Below, one piece after another: positions 18,068 through 24,003 of a DNA stretch of 64,000 nt. This stretch comes from Candidatus Nezhaarchaeales archaeon (GTDB lineage Archaea > Thermoproteota > Methanomethylicia > Nezhaarchaeales > WYZ-LMO8), in NCBI GenBank assembly GCA_038887515.1, contig JAWAKK010000001.1:416001-480000 (forward strand), written 5' to 3'. Below the pieces are notes generated by a model. The model worked only from the letters and a program-made list of their open reading frames with translations, ran no database searches and was not told the DNA's origin. The translations under genes and the position numbers were made by a program. How positions within the stretch are numbered: position 1 is the stretch's first letter; each line of letters opens with the position of its first letter.

Positions 18068-19462
18068 TCAACTCTCAACCCTCTTAACCCTTATTACTTG
18101 TTCGCTCTCCCTAAGCCCGTACGTCAATACTACAAGATCTCCCAACTTAATTTCATTCAATCGTCTAAGAAGCTGAAAAGTTTCTTCAAGCCCTTCATCA
18201 TAACTCGACGCCTTGACCAAGTAACCCTTTATGCCCCAAAGTACGTTTAATTGCTTTAAGACCTTAGAGTCTGGCGTTCCAACATAGAAGTCTACAGCTG
18301 GTCTTAGCAACGAAGTAAGCCTTGCAGTATTGCCATGAACACTATATATTATCAGCTTAGCATTAAGGTGCTCAGCAAGAGAAATTACTCCTTTAGTGAA
18401 ACTTGCCCATAGGCTCTTAGCTACTCGTTGTCTAGATACCACAAAGCTTTCTTCAGCGGCCTTAATTATCTTTTTGAGCCACTTTACTGCCTCAACTGGG
18501 TATTTGCCCACAGCAGTCTCTCCAGTTAACATTAGGGCATCAACTCCTTCAGCCACAGCTGTGTTTACGTCTACGACTTCAGCTCTAGTTGGTACTGGGT
18601 TCTCCATCATGGATTCTAAGAGTTGGGTCGCTATTATCATAGGCTTTTCTTTTTCCATTACCTTGTTAATTATGGCGTTCTGAAGGTGAGGAATTTTCTC
18701 CAATCCCATAACCATTCCCAAGTCTCCTCGAGCAACTAATACTGCATCAGAGACCTCAATTACTTCGTCGAGATTGTCTACAGCCGCTTTGGTCTCTATT
18801 TTAGCTATTATCTTAATTTCTTCGTGGCCCCACTTTTTCAATAAACTCCGCAGGGACTCTATGTCGGCTGCAGTTCTCACACAACTTAAACCGATATAGT
18901 CTACGTTATGTTCTAAAGCGAACTTCAAGTCCTCCAAATCTTTATTTGTCAATGGAGGTAGGTCGAAGTCCTTGTTAGGAATTGTTAAAGCCTTCCTTGA
19001 CTTAATAGTAGCATCGGTAAGGGCCATCAGTTCTATGTAGTTAGGGGTTACATCAATTACTTCCAATTTAGCCCTGCCGTCATCCATGACCATTACGTCC
19101 CCGACTTCCAAGTTTTCGTAAACCTCCTTGATTGGTAATGGTAGTTCGAGATTATCAGGCAAGCACTTATCGCTAAGGATCAACCTAGCTCTATCACCCC
19201 TCCTAAGCTTGACGACCCCATTAATGTCTCCAAGCCTAACTGATGGACCTTGTAGGTCTCCTATGAAAGTCAAAGGCCTTTTTAAGAGCTCCTCCACTTT
19301 TGCTAGGTCATCTAGTATTGGCGACCAAAAATCATGGTCACCATGAGCAAAATTAACTCTGAAACCAGAGGCTCCTGCCTCAGCAAGTTCAAGTATCGTT
19401 TTGAACTCGCTCGATGATGGTCCTAAAGAGACTATAATCTTAGTCTTGTTTTCTCTCGACAC
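18068..19462 (-). CDS. pyk: Pyruvate kinase
   Basis: TKIIVSLGP, DLQGP, IAKIET, VARGDLG, ATQLLESM, PTRAE and ETAVGKYP motifs. Confidence 0.96.
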   Translation of the reverse strand: MSRENKTKIIVSLGPSSSEFKTILELAEAGASGFRVNFAHGDHDFWSPILDDLAKVEELLKRPLTFIGDLQGPSVRLGDINGVVKLRRGDRARLILSDKCLPDNLELPLPIKEVYENLEVGDVMVMDDGRAKLEVIDVTPNYIELMALTDATIKSRKALTIPNKDFDLPPLTNKDLEDLKFALEHNVDYIGLSCVRTAADIESLRSLLKKWGHEEIKIIAKIETKAAVDNLDEVIEVSDAVLVARGDLGMVMGLEKIPHLQNAIINKVMEKEKPMIIATQLLESMMENPVPTRAEVVDVNTAVAEGVDALMLTGETAVGKYPVEAVKWLKKIIKAAEESFVVSRQRVAKSLWASFTKGVISLAEHLNAKLIIYSVHGNTARLTSLLRPAVDFYVGTPDSKVLKQLNVLWGIKGYLVKASSYDEGLEETFQLLRRLNEIKLGDLVVLTYGLRESEQVIRVKRVES

Positions 19463-19592
19463 GTTTCATCCTTGTTTTCTGGGGTTGCTCTACTATAAAT
19501 TAGTTATAGGTTGTTGGTTTTTTCTTTATGTGATCCATAGAAGCTTAAGGCTCCACAGCCTCCTACAACAAGAAAGGCTTGTAGTGATGCTT

Positions 19593-19606
19593 AGAAAGGT
19601 TTATTT
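19593..19606 (+). promoter_or_regulatory. BRE/TATA promoter for the structured leader-yhhQ-queC transcript
   Basis: AGAAAGG-TTTATTT about 25 nt upstream of the GGGG at 19629 that begins the hairpin array. Confidence 0.55.
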
Positions 19607-19628
19607 TCAGGCCTTAAAGGACCTTCAA

Positions 19629-19741
19629 GGGGTATAGACCCCCGGCGGGTTGAGCTCCGCCGTTACTCTAAATGCGGCGAAGCCCCAATGAGGGCTAGCT
19701 AAGGGAGAAATCAACCTCTCCCACTGAGAGGTGGGAGGTTG
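19629..19741 (+). ncRNA. Structured 5' leader, candidate preQ0/7-deazaguanine riboswitch
   Basis: Four consecutive hairpins, loop-loop complementarity GGUUGA/UCAACC and an alternative SD+start sequestering stem (see findings). Confidence 0.6.
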
Positions 19742-20395
19742 CCTGGTGAGGGTACTCGAATAATATTAACGTCAACATTTACCGCGGCTCTAGTAGTAGC
19801 CAACATAGCGGCCTCGAAGATTGTACAGTTTTGGTGGCTGACGTTTCCAGCCGGTACTTTAGCCTATTGTATCACTTTCCTCTGTACAGATTTGTACACA
19901 GAATTTTTTGGCAAACGCGAAACTCAGTTTGTTGTTCTTGCAGGCTTTGTAGCGAACATCCTCATGACGGTCTTGATCCAAGCATCTATAATCGCTCCAA
20001 TCGCTCAGTTCCAAGAAAGTTACCAAGAAATATACGGAAGAGTTCTAGGCTCTACATGGCGCATCGTGCTTGCAAGCATGGTAGCCTACATAATCTCGCA
20101 GAGCCACGACGTCTGGGCGTTCCACTTTTGGGGTAAGCTAACTAAAGGAAAGCATCTGTGGATACGTAACAATGCTTCAACAATGGTTAGCCAAGCTATG
20201 GATACTTTGATATTCACGTTCATAGCGTTCTGGGGGGTCATTGATATAGCTAGCCTGTTTAGCATGGCATTCACGCTCTACATTGTCAAATGGGTTGTAG
20301 CAGTTCTGGATACACCCTTCTGTTATCTAGGCGTTTACTTGATCCGTAGGTTGACGGGTATGAAGCCCATATGGTTTAGAGGGGAGACGGTTTGA
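19739..20395 (+). CDS. yhhQ: Queuosine/archaeosine precursor (preQ0/preQ1) transporter, YhhQ/DUF165/VUT family
   Basis: ANI.A.K, FL.TD..TE.FG, R...AS..AY..SQ..DV..F and LW.RNN.ST..SQ..DT..F..IAF motifs. Confidence 0.9.
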   Translation: MPGEGTRIILTSTFTAALVVANIAASKIVQFWWLTFPAGTLAYCITFLCTDLYTEFFGKRETQFVVLAGFVANILMTVLIQASIIAPIAQFQESYQEIYGRVLGSTWRIVLASMVAYIISQSHDVWAFHFWGKLTKGKHLWIRNNASTMVSQAMDTLIFTFIAFWGVIDIASLFSMAFTLYIVKWVVAVLDTPFCYLGVYLIRRLTGMKPIWFRGETV

Positions 20396-21132
20396 AGAAA
20401 GTGGTATCCTTAGTCAGCGGAGGACTTGACAGTACGAGTTATGCAGCACTGTGGAAGCATAGAGGCTACGATGTTTACCCAGTAATATTTGATTACGGTC
20501 AAAAAGGACGTAGAGAGGTTGAGGTGGCAAAGAGGTTGAGCATGATTATAGGGTTTGAAGAACCCCTCGTTCTAAACGTTTCATCTCTCAAGAGTGTGTG
20601 GTTGAAAACGCAGCTCCTAGATGAGTTAGTAAAAGTCGAGGAGAACTATAGCCCCACGGTAGTGGTGCCCATTAGAAACGTGGTCTTCATAACGATAGCT
20701 TGCGCGTACGCTTTGTCCATTGGAGCTGATATCGTGGCCTATGGGGCACATCTTAACGATATCGCTACTCGGGCAGATACTGGTGAACCGCTTTATCCGG
20801 ACTGTCATCCGAACGTTGCGTTGGCCTTAGAAGAAATAATAAGAATAGCTCATTTCCCCGTTGGAGCAAAGAAGTTAGAGGTGTGGAGTCCGGCGAGAGA
20901 AGGCTTTACTAAAACTCAGGTTCTGAAGAAGGGTTACGAGTTGCTAGGAGATTTAATATACGAAACTTGGAGTTGCTATCTCAGTGATTCGATCCACTGC
21001 GGTACATGCGAGTCCTGTATTAATAGACATAAAGCATTCATAGAAGCTATGGTTCCAGACAAAACTCGTTATAAAGAACATTCAAAGATTCATGAAAAGT
21101 GTTTTAGTGGAGATTGTGGTGTTAATCCTTAG
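20392..21132 (+). CDS. queC: 7-cyano-7-deazaguanine (preQ0) synthase
   Basis: SGGLDS PP-loop, FDYGQ, VPIRN, YPDC and TWSCY..HCGTCESC zinc site; 4-nt overlap with the transporter gene. Confidence 0.93.
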   Translation: MKKVVSLVSGGLDSTSYAALWKHRGYDVYPVIFDYGQKGRREVEVAKRLSMIIGFEEPLVLNVSSLKSVWLKTQLLDELVKVEENYSPTVVVPIRNVVFITIACAYALSIGADIVAYGAHLNDIATRADTGEPLYPDCHPNVALALEEIIRIAHFPVGAKKLEVWSPAREGFTKTQVLKKGYELLGDLIYETWSCYLSDSIHCGTCESCINRHKAFIEAMVPDKTRYKEHSKIHEKCFSGDCGVNP

Positions 21133-22289
21133 CTTGCTCTTTTCTTGATCTTCTCCTTTGCCCTCTCTTTTGCGTCCTCATCTTCACTTGCTACGATGCC
21201 TACACCCATGAGCCTATTAAAAGCCGAGTTTAAGAATTTTATGTAAGAGCCTCTTTGACCTACAAATGCTCCGAACTCTCCCTTCACTTTTACCATTAAA
21301 TTCGGCCCAGCAAAGTCCACATCGGTTATGTGCTTGTGAATCCATGAAACTGGATGTATAGCCCTTACGATGTCTGCAAAGTTCAGCGTAAGTTCTACTG
21401 CTCTGAGTTTAAGCTGAACCTCTCGCTCAATCTTACTTATCCTATCACCGCTTTTACCTATCAACCTGGCTAGGTACCCTTCTTTAACTACAACAAGGGC
21501 GTCGGGCACGTGCTCAGCAGCTATATCAAAAATCCTCTTGCACTCAATTAAGTCTAAGACAGTTACGATGTCAGCATCCGGTGCATGCATCTTGGCCACG
21601 TCTATTATGTTTTTCTCTACATCGTTTAACGGTCTCTTCCTCATCTTCATTTCAAGAAGTAGCTTAATACCCCTTTTCGCCCCCGGCCTAATTATATCCT
21701 TTAAACCTAAGTCTATTACCTTAGCATAATCTTCGCCCAAAAGTACCTCCCTCAATGTAACCACTCCACTGGGGCTCGTTTCTAAAACGCTTTGCAAAAT
21801 AGGGTCTCCAGCAATTACCAGCTTGCTCTTATGACCAATCCTCATAAATGTCTCTACGACGCATTCAGGCATTATTGCTTGAGCATCGTCAACAAATATT
21901 AGGGTTTTATCAAACGTTCTACCCCTCAAGTAATGTGCATCAGCAAATAGCAACCTACCTTCTTTGGCTACCTTCTCCACGACTTGCCACTCGATGAGGC
22001 TAGTTAAAATGTCTTTAAGATAAGATGAAGCTATGTCGTAGTACAGTTCCCCGGCATCAATTGTTGTGACTTCTCTCCCTGTTACGATGTCTACAACTGG
22101 TTTCACTATGACAAACCTCTGATACTTACCCTCCATAACGCTGTCAATGCCGTAGGTTATGCTCAACAAGCTTTTACCAGTACCTGTAGGACCGAAGACC
22201 CCTATAACTTCGTAAGAGTCGCTTTTCAGAGCTTGAAGTAGTTCTTCTTGCCCTGAACTCTTGGGCTTTACTTTATCGAGCAGGCTCAT
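21129..22289 (-). CDS. PhoH-family ATPase fused to two KH RNA-binding domains
   Basis: GPTGTGKS, YLRGRTF, DDAQ and GDP motifs; IGKSG and VGQRG GxxG loops. Confidence 0.85.
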   Translation of the reverse strand: MSLLDKVKPKSSGQEELLQALKSDSYEVIGVFGPTGTGKSLLSITYGIDSVMEGKYQRFVIVKPVVDIVTGREVTTIDAGELYYDIASSYLKDILTSLIEWQVVEKVAKEGRLLFADAHYLRGRTFDKTLIFVDDAQAIMPECVVETFMRIGHKSKLVIAGDPILQSVLETSPSGVVTLREVLLGEDYAKVIDLGLKDIIRPGAKRGIKLLLEMKMRKRPLNDVEKNIIDVAKMHAPDADIVTVLDLIECKRIFDIAAEHVPDALVVVKEGYLARLIGKSGDRISKIEREVQLKLRAVELTLNFADIVRAIHPVSWIHKHITDVDFAGPNLMVKVKGEFGAFVGQRGSYIKFLNSAFNRLMGVGIVASEDEDAKERAKEKIKKRAS

Positions 22290-22614: not shown

Positions 22615-24003
22615 TTGGAGATGGTTAAGAAATTTAAAAAGTTCGTCAAAGTAGTTAAGACGAGAACTCCTTGGCTAGAGCATGTAATCGAAGACTTCAA
22701 TGACGCTTGCGACTTAAATCAGATAGATTTAGTTATTAGGACACCCTCTGGAAGCATGTGTGTCTACTGTAAGGGCTCTAAATTGCTATGCGGCAAAACT
22801 AGGTGCCCCATATTAGTAAAGGTATATAGCATAACGAAGCTTAGTTCATTTTTAAATTCGCTGGATGTTGTAGGATCATCACCTCCTGCGGCGTTCGTTG
22901 GTCGCCTCGGGTACCCCTACGTCTATGCTGGCCCTCTCGTACCACCCTTCACGGGGGATACCTATATCCTCGATACGCCTGAGCTTTGGCTTAAAGCAAG
23001 CCTACAAGACGTAGTGGATTTCAGGGTGAAGCTTATACGTGGAAAAGCTAGGTTTCACGTGAATGATGCTAACGAATCTCCAAGACTTTTGAGCGACGTT
23101 CAACTAATGGCCATGGGAGTGAGACCCGTTGATTCTGAAATGAAGCTCTTAAAGAAGCCGAGCGCAAGCATACTGCTTGACGACGAAGTACAACCTATGG
23201 GTCCCTCAGCACCTATAAAGGAGCTTAGGATAAGCAACATTAGTACTAACAAGTTAATTGAAAAAGTCGTTAACGACACAGACTTGAAGGCTAAAGATGC
23301 AATCCTTGAATTATATAGAAAGGGGGCACCAGTATCACAAATTCAAAGAGTATTAAGCGTCGGCCTTCTTGGAACTAAAGGAAGGAGGCGGCTTGTACCT
23401 ACGAGGTGGAGCATAACCGCCGTAGATAGCACGATATCCAGAGTCTTGAGAGATGAGAAGGTTAAGGGGATGCCTGAGCTTAATGAATATAGGGTCTATA
23501 GCCTAGACTACATGGACAACAAGTTCGTCGTAATAATGTTCCCTGGGAAGTGGAGCTACGAATCTATAGAGGCTTGGTTTCCTGGAACGACTTGGAATCC
23601 TGAAGGAGGCTCCATAGCTTTCTGCGGTGATTGGGAAGGTTATTGGGGGAGGACTACCTACGCCAGTATGGGAGGATGTTATTATGCTGCGAGGCTAGCC
23701 GTCACTGAGTATCTTGCTAAAATAGGTAGGCAAGCTTCAGTCTTAATTCTTCGAGAGTCTCATCCAGGCTACATAATGCCAGTAGGGGTCTGGATTGTAA
23801 GAGAATGCGTTAGAAGCGCGCTTAGCCGAGGGTATGAGAAATTCGATAATTTAAAGGAAGCGCTTGAAAGAGCCTTCAACAAGCTTTACATAAATCCAAG
23901 GATTTGGATGCAAGTTGGTAAGTTGTTAAGCGATCAAATTAAACAGGAGAGGTTGACGAAGTTCATTAATGAGGGGCCTGAAAGTTCGCGTCGATATCTT
24001 TAA
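22615..24003 (+). CDS. nreA: Nre-family PCNA-interacting DNA repair protein
   Basis: C..CKG.K.LCG..CP, GSSPP..FVG..GYP, LVPTRWSITAVD and GGCYYAARL motifs; C-terminal PIP-like QERLTKF. Confidence 0.9.
   Translation: MEMVKKFKKFVKVVKTRTPWLEHVIEDFNDACDLNQIDLVIRTPSGSMCVYCKGSKLLCGKTRCPILVKVYSITKLSSFLNSLDVVGSSPPAAFVGRLGYPYVYAGPLVPPFTGDTYILDTPELWLKASLQDVVDFRVKLIRGKARFHVNDANESPRLLSDVQLMAMGVRPVDSEMKLLKKPSASILLDDEVQPMGPSAPIKELRISNISTNKLIEKVVNDTDLKAKDAILELYRKGAPVSQIQRVLSVGLLGTKGRRRLVPTRWSITAVDSTISRVLRDEKVKGMPELNEYRVYSLDYMDNKFVVIMFPGKWSYESIEAWFPGTTWNPEGGSIAFCGDWEGYWGRTTYASMGGCYYAARLAVTEYLAKIGRQASVLILRESHPGYIMPVGVWIVRECVRSALSRGYEKFDNLKEALERAFNKLYINPRIWMQVGKLLSDQIKQERLTKFINEGPESSRRYL

Follow-up and report, generated by a model that had tools for sequence, protein, structure and literature searches.

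A conserved leader RNA of archaeal transporter genes is a candidate riboswitch for preQ0 or a close relative

The genome of a Candidatus Nezhaarchaeales archaeon (G000; assembly GCA_038887515.1) contains a yhhQ-type transporter gene followed by queC, and the leader of these two genes raises the question of whether it is a riboswitch and, if so, of which fold and for which ligand. We analysed this leader in a window of 64,000 nucleotides (nt) of contig JAWAKK010000001.1 (positions 416,001 to 480,000 of the forward strand), the numbering of which is used throughout. A first reading of the sequence by a model, here called the original prediction, had proposed a translational riboswitch of a possibly new class that senses preQ0 (7-cyano-7-deazaguanine) or a related guanine derivative. 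We find that the element is conserved and well beyond chance. Moreover, the reading best supported by the sequences, and one that we hold to be likely, is that of a new archaeal riboswitch for preQ0 or a close relative; this candidate is probably a new RNA family with a new fold that does the job of the bacterial preQ1 riboswitches.

Conservation and fold of the leader RNA

A YhhQ protein search of 41 related genomes returned four close orthologues with 70-80% identity, and the leaders of these and of G000 were aligned (alignment A2). The mean column identity in A2 is 85% with 84 invariant columns, and the near-invariant stretch reaches from CGGCGGG to GGAGGU while the promoter flank and the first codons diverge. 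The start position of yhhQ is kept in the four orthologues, as UUG or, in G014, as GUG, and codon-like variation begins only there; thus, the conservation is at the level of RNA or DNA and is not that of a protein extension. The 141-nt leader also folds better than shuffled sequences (z = -2.92; 1 of 200 shuffles as good).

A covariance model built from the five sequences (R1) matched in 10 of 62 genomes of the class and in 3 of 151 genomes of a phylum-wide sample. Of 151 genomes sampled from the class of genome G101, 4 had the motif according to a second model, built later (R2), two of them with two copies each. A strict three-block IUPAC pattern run over the GTDB species genomes gave 12 stretches; 11 are in archaeal metagenome-assembled genomes (MAGs) titled Nezhaarchaeales, Methanomethylicia, Bathyarchaeia/Bathyarchaeota, 'Nitrososphaerota' and Thermoproteales, and all 11 were confirmed by the model, whereas the covariance model does not recognise the only bacterial stretch, from Kitasatospora. 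A slightly looser pattern gave 51 stretches in metagenomes, of which 38 are model matches and the remaining 13 were taken as chance (E > 0.01; at most 13.7 bits with R2), and viral contigs scanned with the pattern gave 0 matches. A loose pattern for only the first helix and its linker (P1 and J1/2, below) was unspecific: it matched in 47 of 401 genomes, was also frequent in the reversed control, and 13 of the 30 loci fetched had the rest of the motif. Pooling yielded 52 matches with 40 distinct sequences, all from Thermoproteota under record titles such as Nezhaarchaeales, Methanomethylicia and Bathyarchaeia, and the alignment of these 40 homologues (A4) is the basis of the pairing counts given below. 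Among the genomes, metagenomes and viral contigs searched, the motif is known from archaeal records only.

We name the helices P0 to P5, all of them on the plus strand; P0, P1 and P4 are the P1, P2 and P3 of the original prediction, and our P2 (CUCU:GGAG) is new. RNAalifold predicted P1, P2, P3 and P4 both from the five sequences and, de novo, from 39 sequences aligned independently with MAFFT, without fitting to a model. We then counted a model of 28 pairs, consisting of P1, P2, the pair C19675:G19703, P3, P4 and P5, on A4. In this count, 96.3% were paired compared to 85.5% in shuffles and 45-58% when the partners were slid by 1-3 columns; 19 of the 28 pairs have double changes, and 0 of 500 shuffles reached any of the five measures. 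The model to which A4 was aligned contained most of the helices from the start, and the counts therefore lean toward them; however, columns 51-144 have hardly any gaps, and the independent MAFFT alignment yields the same helices. The original prediction had called for covariation to be sought in homologous leaders, and in each of P1 to P5 at least one pair shows it.

P1 (19643-19662), a CGGCGG/CCGCCG hairpin with the loop GUUGAGCU, was recovered de novo and is 99.6% paired; its closing pair covaries (C-G 33, A-U 3, G-C 3), and the other five pairs are invariant. Thus, this helix was correctly foreseen. In 25 of the 40 homologues a hairpin of unrelated sequence abuts P1 on its 5' side, which in G000 is P0 (GGGGU-AUAG-ACCCC; 19629-19642). 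P0 is absent in G005/G006 and in the AU-rich Bathyarchaeia versions, so that the GGGGU/ACCCC complementarity is real but the helix is optional.

P1 is followed by the linker J1/2 (U-N-A; 19663-19665), in which U19663 and A19665 are conserved in at least 39 of 40 sequences, and by a long arm of P2, P3 and P4 that is closed by CUCU:GGAG and has the invariant bulges RRAUG and AA. In P2, also predicted de novo, CUCU (19666-19669) pairs with GGAG (19704-19707) in 160 of 160 cells, with U-A 30 / C-G 10 in pair 2 and C-G 34 / U-G 4 / U-A 2 in pair 4. The 5-nt bulge RRAUG (AAAUG here; 19670-19674), with A19672, U19673 and G19674 conserved in at least 39 of 40, leads to the single pair C19675:G19703 (19675-19703), which encloses P3-P4 and is C-G in 27, U-A in 11 and other in 2 of the 40. 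P3 (19676-19700) pairs GGC (19676-78) with GCU (19698-700), is 99.2% paired and has double changes in all three pairs, the sequence being swapped among homologues for GGA:UCC, AGC:GCU and others. None of these three elements (P2, C19675:G19703 and P3) was part of the original prediction. P4 (19681-19696) was: it is the hairpin (A)GCCC-CAAUGA-GGGC(U), 97% paired with double changes in 4 of 5 pairs (CCUU:AAGG, CUCC:GGAG, CCCC:GGGG), and its conserved loop N-R-A-U-G-A keeps A19688, U19689 and G19690 in at least 39 of 40.

The 3' strand of P2 (GGAG; 19704-19707) resembles a Shine-Dalgarno (SD) sequence and could instead pair with UCUCCC (19717-22). It is followed by a conserved single-stranded tail, AAAUCAACC (19708-19716), with A19708-A19710 and C19712 conserved in at least 39 of 40, for which neither the pair counts on A4 nor RNAduplex runs with the P1 loop support a pairing partner. 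For the P1 loop against the tail and the anti-SD strand, the mean z was 0.05 with 1 of 38 below -1.5, and invariant positions are uninformative on short tertiary pairs. In total, at least 39 of the 40 sequences agree at 30 positions, and many of these are unpaired (U-N-A, the bulge AUG, the P4-loop AUG, A19702 and AAA-C of the tail).

The last helix, P5 (19717-19738; UCUCCCACU-GAGA-GGUGGGAGG), sequesters the SD region; it is 90.8% paired, with double changes in 8 of 9 pairs. P5 is the minimum free energy (MFE) hairpin in every tail folded (26 + 14 outputs, one sequence being in both), the tail of locus L042 being cut by the contig end. The 3' arm of P5 is always a purine run (GGGAGG, GGUGAGG, GGGGGUG, GGAGGUG and similar), and in G000 this arm and the loop hold GAGGUG (19728-33) and GGAGGU (19734-39). 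The 3' end of the 16S rRNA of G000 reads ...CACCUCCU and, as ...GGAUCACCUCCU, is complementary to both GAGGUG and GGAGGU. In the QueT versions of the leader, GGGAGGU lies 6-7 nt upstream of AUG. The sequence has no T-run after P5, and the natural reading is, therefore, translational rather than termination control. Of the anti-SD stem of the original prediction, the core CCCAC/GUGGG stood (92.5% paired, 5/5 pairs covarying); the outer part CAACCU/AGGUUG is weaker, with only 80% paired.

All complementarities listed in the original prediction exist at their coordinates, and several of them were not upheld across homologues. A kissing loop of GGUUGA with UCAACC was paired in 79.4% compared to 79.2% in shuffles, its central pairs being unpaired in 23/38 and 18/38 sequences and UCAACC being fixed; an alternative helix CGCCGU/GCGGCG (19658-79) gave 87.1% compared to 87.0%. 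Several other candidates were set aside. The single-sequence MFE structure of G000 breaks P1, uses a UUGA specific to G000 and contradicts the comparative structure. For GAU:AUC (bulge or P4 loop with the tail) and AGCU:AGCU (P1 loop with P3), one-sided changes in L077 and G017 are uncompensated. A kink-turn (L7Ae site) in the P3/P4 internal loop or in the RRAUG bulge lacks the required tandem G-A pairs, as judged by eye against the consensus, and no D-arm-like arrangement was seen that would make the RNA a tRNA mimic and substrate of ArcTGT.

Associated genes, pathway and known riboswitch classes

The yhhQ-type transporter gene (Vut_1/COG1738; 19739-20395, plus strand) has a UUG start directly after P5 and overlaps by 4 nt at its stop with queC (7-cyano-7-deazaguanine synthase; 20392-21132, plus strand). 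Both gene calls of the original prediction agree with Pfam (PF02592, 3.7e-52, and PF06508, 9.4e-42, respectively), and the QueC translation shows SGGLDS, YPDC and a C-terminal Cys cluster. For the 52 matches, we extracted the long open reading frame (ORF) beginning at the element and submitted 35 distinct products of at least 135 amino acids (aa) to Pfam, leaving out duplicates, identical copies, and contig-cut or mis-framed ORFs (L083, L074, L078, L076, L056, L042). All 35 are either QueT (PF06177, 26) or Vut_1/YhhQ (PF02592, 9), which are unrelated transporter families, and loci found later again have Vut_1, QueT and QueC downstream. Directly after the transporter gene, 13 of 39 loci have a QueC match, one of them a 43-aa stretch only and one 27% identical, and 11 of 39 have an ECF-type ABC ATPase; 8 of the 39 loci had less than 400 nt left.

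At one locus, L012 of G013, yhhQ is followed only by a 43-aa tblastn match to QueC with 49% identity, and a full QueC is on another contig (96 bits); the fragment may be a decayed queC remnant. In the Bathyarchaeia genomes G233 and G213 (L093, L094, L096, L097), there are two motif copies each, both upstream of Vut_1/YhhQ paralogues; at L096, QueC comes next, and the YhhQ ORF detected starts some 200 nt downstream of the motif, its N-terminal part apparently lying in another frame.

G000, which is 94% complete, has one TGT-family gene (549-aa ORF) and one full QueC, which is the operon copy. No PTPS/QueD match, no QueT and no QueF were found genome-wide in G000, and the QueE model gave only two weak partial radical-SAM matches (29 and 26 bits, cut-off 206). 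Of six motif-bearing genomes searched, five gave no QueD (PF01242) match (G000, G005, G013, G014 and G101, which are 94-100% complete, absence from a MAG not being proof), and G017 has QueD. Among G005, G013, G014, G017 and G101, four have a full-length QueC and G101 has only weak PP-loop matches. As QueD was not found in most of the motif-bearing genomes checked, these genomes look salvage-dependent. The gene content suggests that the organisms salvage a 7-deazaguanine, either preQ0 itself or 7-carboxy-7-deazaguanine (CDG) converted by QueC to preQ0; the QueC reaction and its SGGxDS motif are described in bioRxiv 10.64898/2026.04.08.717055. G000 gave no QueF match, and the TGT of archaea uses preQ0 (PMC4770233); preQ1 is, therefore, unlikely to be the native ligand and preQ0 is likelier.

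The comparison with Rfam that the original prediction had proposed was made with cmscan and all 4227 families of Rfam 15, and it gave no match. The 64-kb window has 0 families at the gathering score, not even tRNA; 19450-19850 (401 nt) gave no preQ1 family at E <= 10 and only sR1 (9.4 bits) and Rev39_5p_UTR (8.9 bits), both at chance level; and 11 further loci gave no preQ1 family and no recurring family at E <= 5. The preQ1 classes I, II and III are the Rfam families RF00522, RF01054 and RF02680. In bacteria, yhhQ, queT and queC are controlled by preQ1 riboswitches, and YhhQ of E. coli is involved in preQ0 transport (PMC5372724). Similarly to these classes, the archaeal motif lies in 5' leaders of yhhQ/COG1738, queT and queC-type genes, and it would be expected to respond to a free 7-deazaguanine base with control at the ribosome-binding site. 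By contrast, it matches them neither in sequence nor in structure, having about 110 nt and five helices instead of a small pseudoknot, a loop-tail pseudoknot is unsupported, the motif is found only in archaea (Thermoproteota), and the ligand is likelier preQ0.

According to a 2017 survey, archaea sparingly use very few known riboswitch classes, of which those for thiamine pyrophosphate (TPP) and fluoride are the commonest (PMC5473149). Similarly to these, the motif is a candidate cis-acting sensor in an archaeal mRNA leader; the TPP and fluoride classes also occur in bacteria, whereas the motif is in archaeal records only. As in SD-sequestering expression platforms, the covarying P5 pairs a pyrimidine anti-SD strand with an SD-like purine run by the start codon, and the SD-like GGAG of P2 inside the aptamer could compete; unlike in such platforms, P5 is present in every representative and the computed energies lack two balanced states. 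Since P5 is ubiquitous and at a fixed distance from the tail, it may belong to the folded domain itself instead of being a platform that can be separated from it. General traits of riboswitches are found: a covarying structure in a 5' leader, conserved unpaired nucleotides, and functionally related but non-homologous genes. We found no description of an archaeal 7-deazaguanine riboswitch in the open-access literature, in which supplements (e.g. the motif lists of PMC5737381) might hold it unnamed; the term 'archaea' has 0 occurrences in the accessible text of a 2024 preQ1 review (PMC11625349).

Proposed mechanism and rival explanations

In the mechanism that we propose, the ~110-nt aptamer-like fold would be transcribed from the upstream TATA box as the 5' leader of the yhhQ-queC mRNA. 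Its ligand would most likely be the free base preQ0 or a closely similar 7-deazaguanine, e.g. CDG, an abundance of which would turn down translation of the importer (YhhQ or QueT) and of QueC. Ligand binding would lock P2 (CUCU:GGAG), leaving the pyrimidine anti-SD strand UCUCCCAC free to pair with GUGGGAGG in P5, by which the ribosome-binding site would be hidden. Without ligand, the SD-like GGGAGA of P2 could transiently hold UCUCCC, and the SD would be free. The OFF direction is proposed because of the feedback logic on an importer and the bacterial preQ1 precedents reported in PMC5372724. Of the riboswitch in the original prediction, the structured leader of 7-deazaguanine salvage genes, the lack of a match to a known class and the action at the ribosome-binding site were thus retained, and the proposed aptamer of CGGCGG/CCGCCG, AGCCC/GGGCU and GGGAGA/UCUCCC with a kissing loop was replaced by the fold described above.

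Several observations weigh against this mechanism or limit it. At 37 °C, the energies computed for G000 are -45.4 kcal/mol for P2 with P5, -45.8 for P5 without P2, and -41.2 for GGGAGA/UCUCCC (19703-22) with the SD free. Nearest-neighbour energies, therefore, give P2 no net stability, and the states that contain P5 lie about 4 kcal/mol below the SD-free alternative; moreover, all modelled energies shrink toward zero at 75-85 °C, the total going from -45.4 (37 °C) to -4.7 (85 °C). A simple equilibrium switch between GGGAGA/UCUCCC and P5 is not supported by these values, and a switch would have to be kinetic or based on tertiary structure. In these models, P2 would thus need stabilisation by tertiary contacts or by a ligand, as is typical of a ligand-gated helix, and the SD-free state would be kinetic or temperature-assisted. 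The GGGAGA/UCUCCC helix itself, which had been predicted as part of the aptamer, is only marginally above controls (86.2% paired compared to 83.5% in shuffles and 85.4% with a one-column slide); runs of purines and pyrimidines can pair whatever the register. Four alignment columns, 86, 134, 149 and 179, change together (U-A-U-A in 25/40, C-G-C-G in 5/40), and since column 134 can pair with 86 or 149 and column 149 with 134 or 179, this lends weak support to the helix as a transient alternative; at most, the sequences allow it as a weak alternative pairing for the GGAG strand. In leaders of the YhhQ type, GGAGGU is the strongest SD-like run and lies directly against the UUG/GUG start or overlaps with it (19734-19741), so that only GAGGUG, 5 nt upstream, has a classical SD spacing; the YhhQ start may rely on this upstream GAGGUG or on a non-standard initiation geometry. 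QueT is present in 199 of 401 sampled genomes of the phylum, and the motif is absent from 26 of the 30 best QueT loci fetched; with only 4 of these 30 having it, the motif is a lineage-restricted addition and not a universal feature of these genes. Finally, all sequences are from one phylum and many are close kin, and the shuffle figures overstate their independence and are not probabilities.

The lack of intrinsic bistability in the energies would also fit a leader to which a pathway protein, e.g. ArcTGT or another RNA-binding regulator, binds to control translation with no direct role of a small molecule. A conserved GC hairpin with invariant loops could equally be a protein site, and G000 encodes one TGT-family protein that could be such a binder. 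We consider this explanation unlikely: the approximately 30 invariant positions are spread over the junctions, bulges and tail of a ~100-nt fold, which is typical of an aptamer and exceeds most protein operators, the inspected loci show no link between the motif and a candidate regulator gene, and the same gene set is under riboswitch control in bacteria (PMC5372724). A leader without any ligand could stabilise the mRNA, damp its translation or serve as an RNA thermometer, with P5 melting at the growth temperature. This would account for P5 as the dominant local structure and for the strong loss of folding energy between 37 and 85 °C, and "hot springs metagenome" is the label of the metatranscriptome runs from the same study. 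This constitutive role is, nevertheless, improbable, because a thermometer or stabiliser needs no invariant multi-junction domain upstream of the SD hairpin and because the restriction to two unrelated transporter families of one pathway (35/35) would be unexpected.

Two further explanations concern the identity of the RNA. A strongly diverged member of preQ1 class I, II or III would have the same gene context, and the purine-rich helix followed by an A-rich tail (GGAG-AAAU...) is loosely similar to the pseudoknot-type preQ1 aptamers; with no Rfam 15 match in the window, in the leader region or in the 11 further loci, with a size far above that of preQ1-I and with the loop-tail pseudoknot unsupported, we regard this as very improbable. 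The least credible explanation, to which we give next to no weight, is a separately transcribed small RNA, such as a C/D-box sRNA, upstream of the transporter gene. It draws on the resemblance of the P4 loop NRAUGA to a C box, on CUGA in the P5 loop of G000 and on the weak sR1 match (9.4 bits, E = 6); the CUGA is not conserved (ACGGAG, CCCGAG and ACCGAAG elsewhere), the sR1 score is far under the gathering score of 45, and P5 overlaps with the SD and borders directly on the start codon without an intervening T-run, in strict association with one pathway.

Taking the riboswitch for preQ0 or a close relative as the preferred reading, a more specific version of it is, in our estimation, slightly favoured over its negation. 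In this version, the motif would be the first class that is only found in Archaea and the fourth, structurally unrelated sensor of 7-deazaguanines; it would bind preQ0 or CDG and gate the salvage of archaeosine precursors in thermophilic Thermoproteota that lack QueD, and a second subtype would exist elsewhere. If true, the existence of a strictly archaeal RNA family would mean that riboswitches also arose within the archaea themselves. Its fold would be a new one in the preQ1/preQ0-sensing set, which serves as a model of how RNA recognises ligands, and its aptamer, binding a small purine analogue, would be thermostable. It would also open to test the regulation of archaeosine-precursor supply, preQ0/CDG salvage in uncultured Thermoproteota and SD sequestration in archaeal regulation.

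Variants and locus context

Two loci directly upstream of QueT, L101 (1937-2111, minus strand) and L118 (1981-2150, minus strand) from genomes G426 and G007, have a second architectural subtype. Both are weak R2 matches (23.7 and 23.3 bits), and G007 is in the same family as G000. This subtype keeps P1, GUUACUCC, GGAGAAAU and the SD hairpin; a distal arm of 60-65 nt with the common loop GAGGCGAYURUGA replaces the RRAUGC bulge and the short P3-P4, and the P1 loop has 14 nt with an SD-like GAGG(G/U)AGG. Expanded P1 loops, GGAGGGAGGG and GUGGGAGCAGCU, were also observed in L032 (6521-6658, minus strand), L021 (1501-1641) and L039 (400-542, minus strand). These loops are near copies of the SD region, with complementarity to the anti-SD arm of P5 and duplexes of -12.6 to -14.1 kcal/mol, shuffled loops being similar; such a loop could be a loop-borne anti-anti-SD.

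In the window, the leader lies in an intergenic region (19463-19738) between a pyruvate kinase gene on the minus strand (18068-19462) and the two-gene operon on the plus strand. The B recognition element (BRE)/TATA-like promoter element AGAAAGG TTTATTTT (19593-19607, plus strand) was identified from the sequence and, like the SD-like GAGGUG and the UUG start (19739), is present as the original prediction had it. A similar box, AAAR-N-YTTAT, is visible in the five-genome alignment and in most upstream flanks of homologues. The box starts 36-48 nt upstream of P1, which places the predicted transcription start site within the first few bases of P0 or immediately 5' of P1. In three metatranscriptome runs of the same study, of which approximately 3-5 in 100 of each run were sampled, 0 reads mapped to 19450-20650. 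Downstream and convergent with queC is a gene on the minus strand (21129-22289) for a PhoH-like ATPase with weak C-terminal KH-domain matches, and the next neighbour (22615-24003, plus strand) encodes an archaeal Nre protein (Nre_N + Nre_C).

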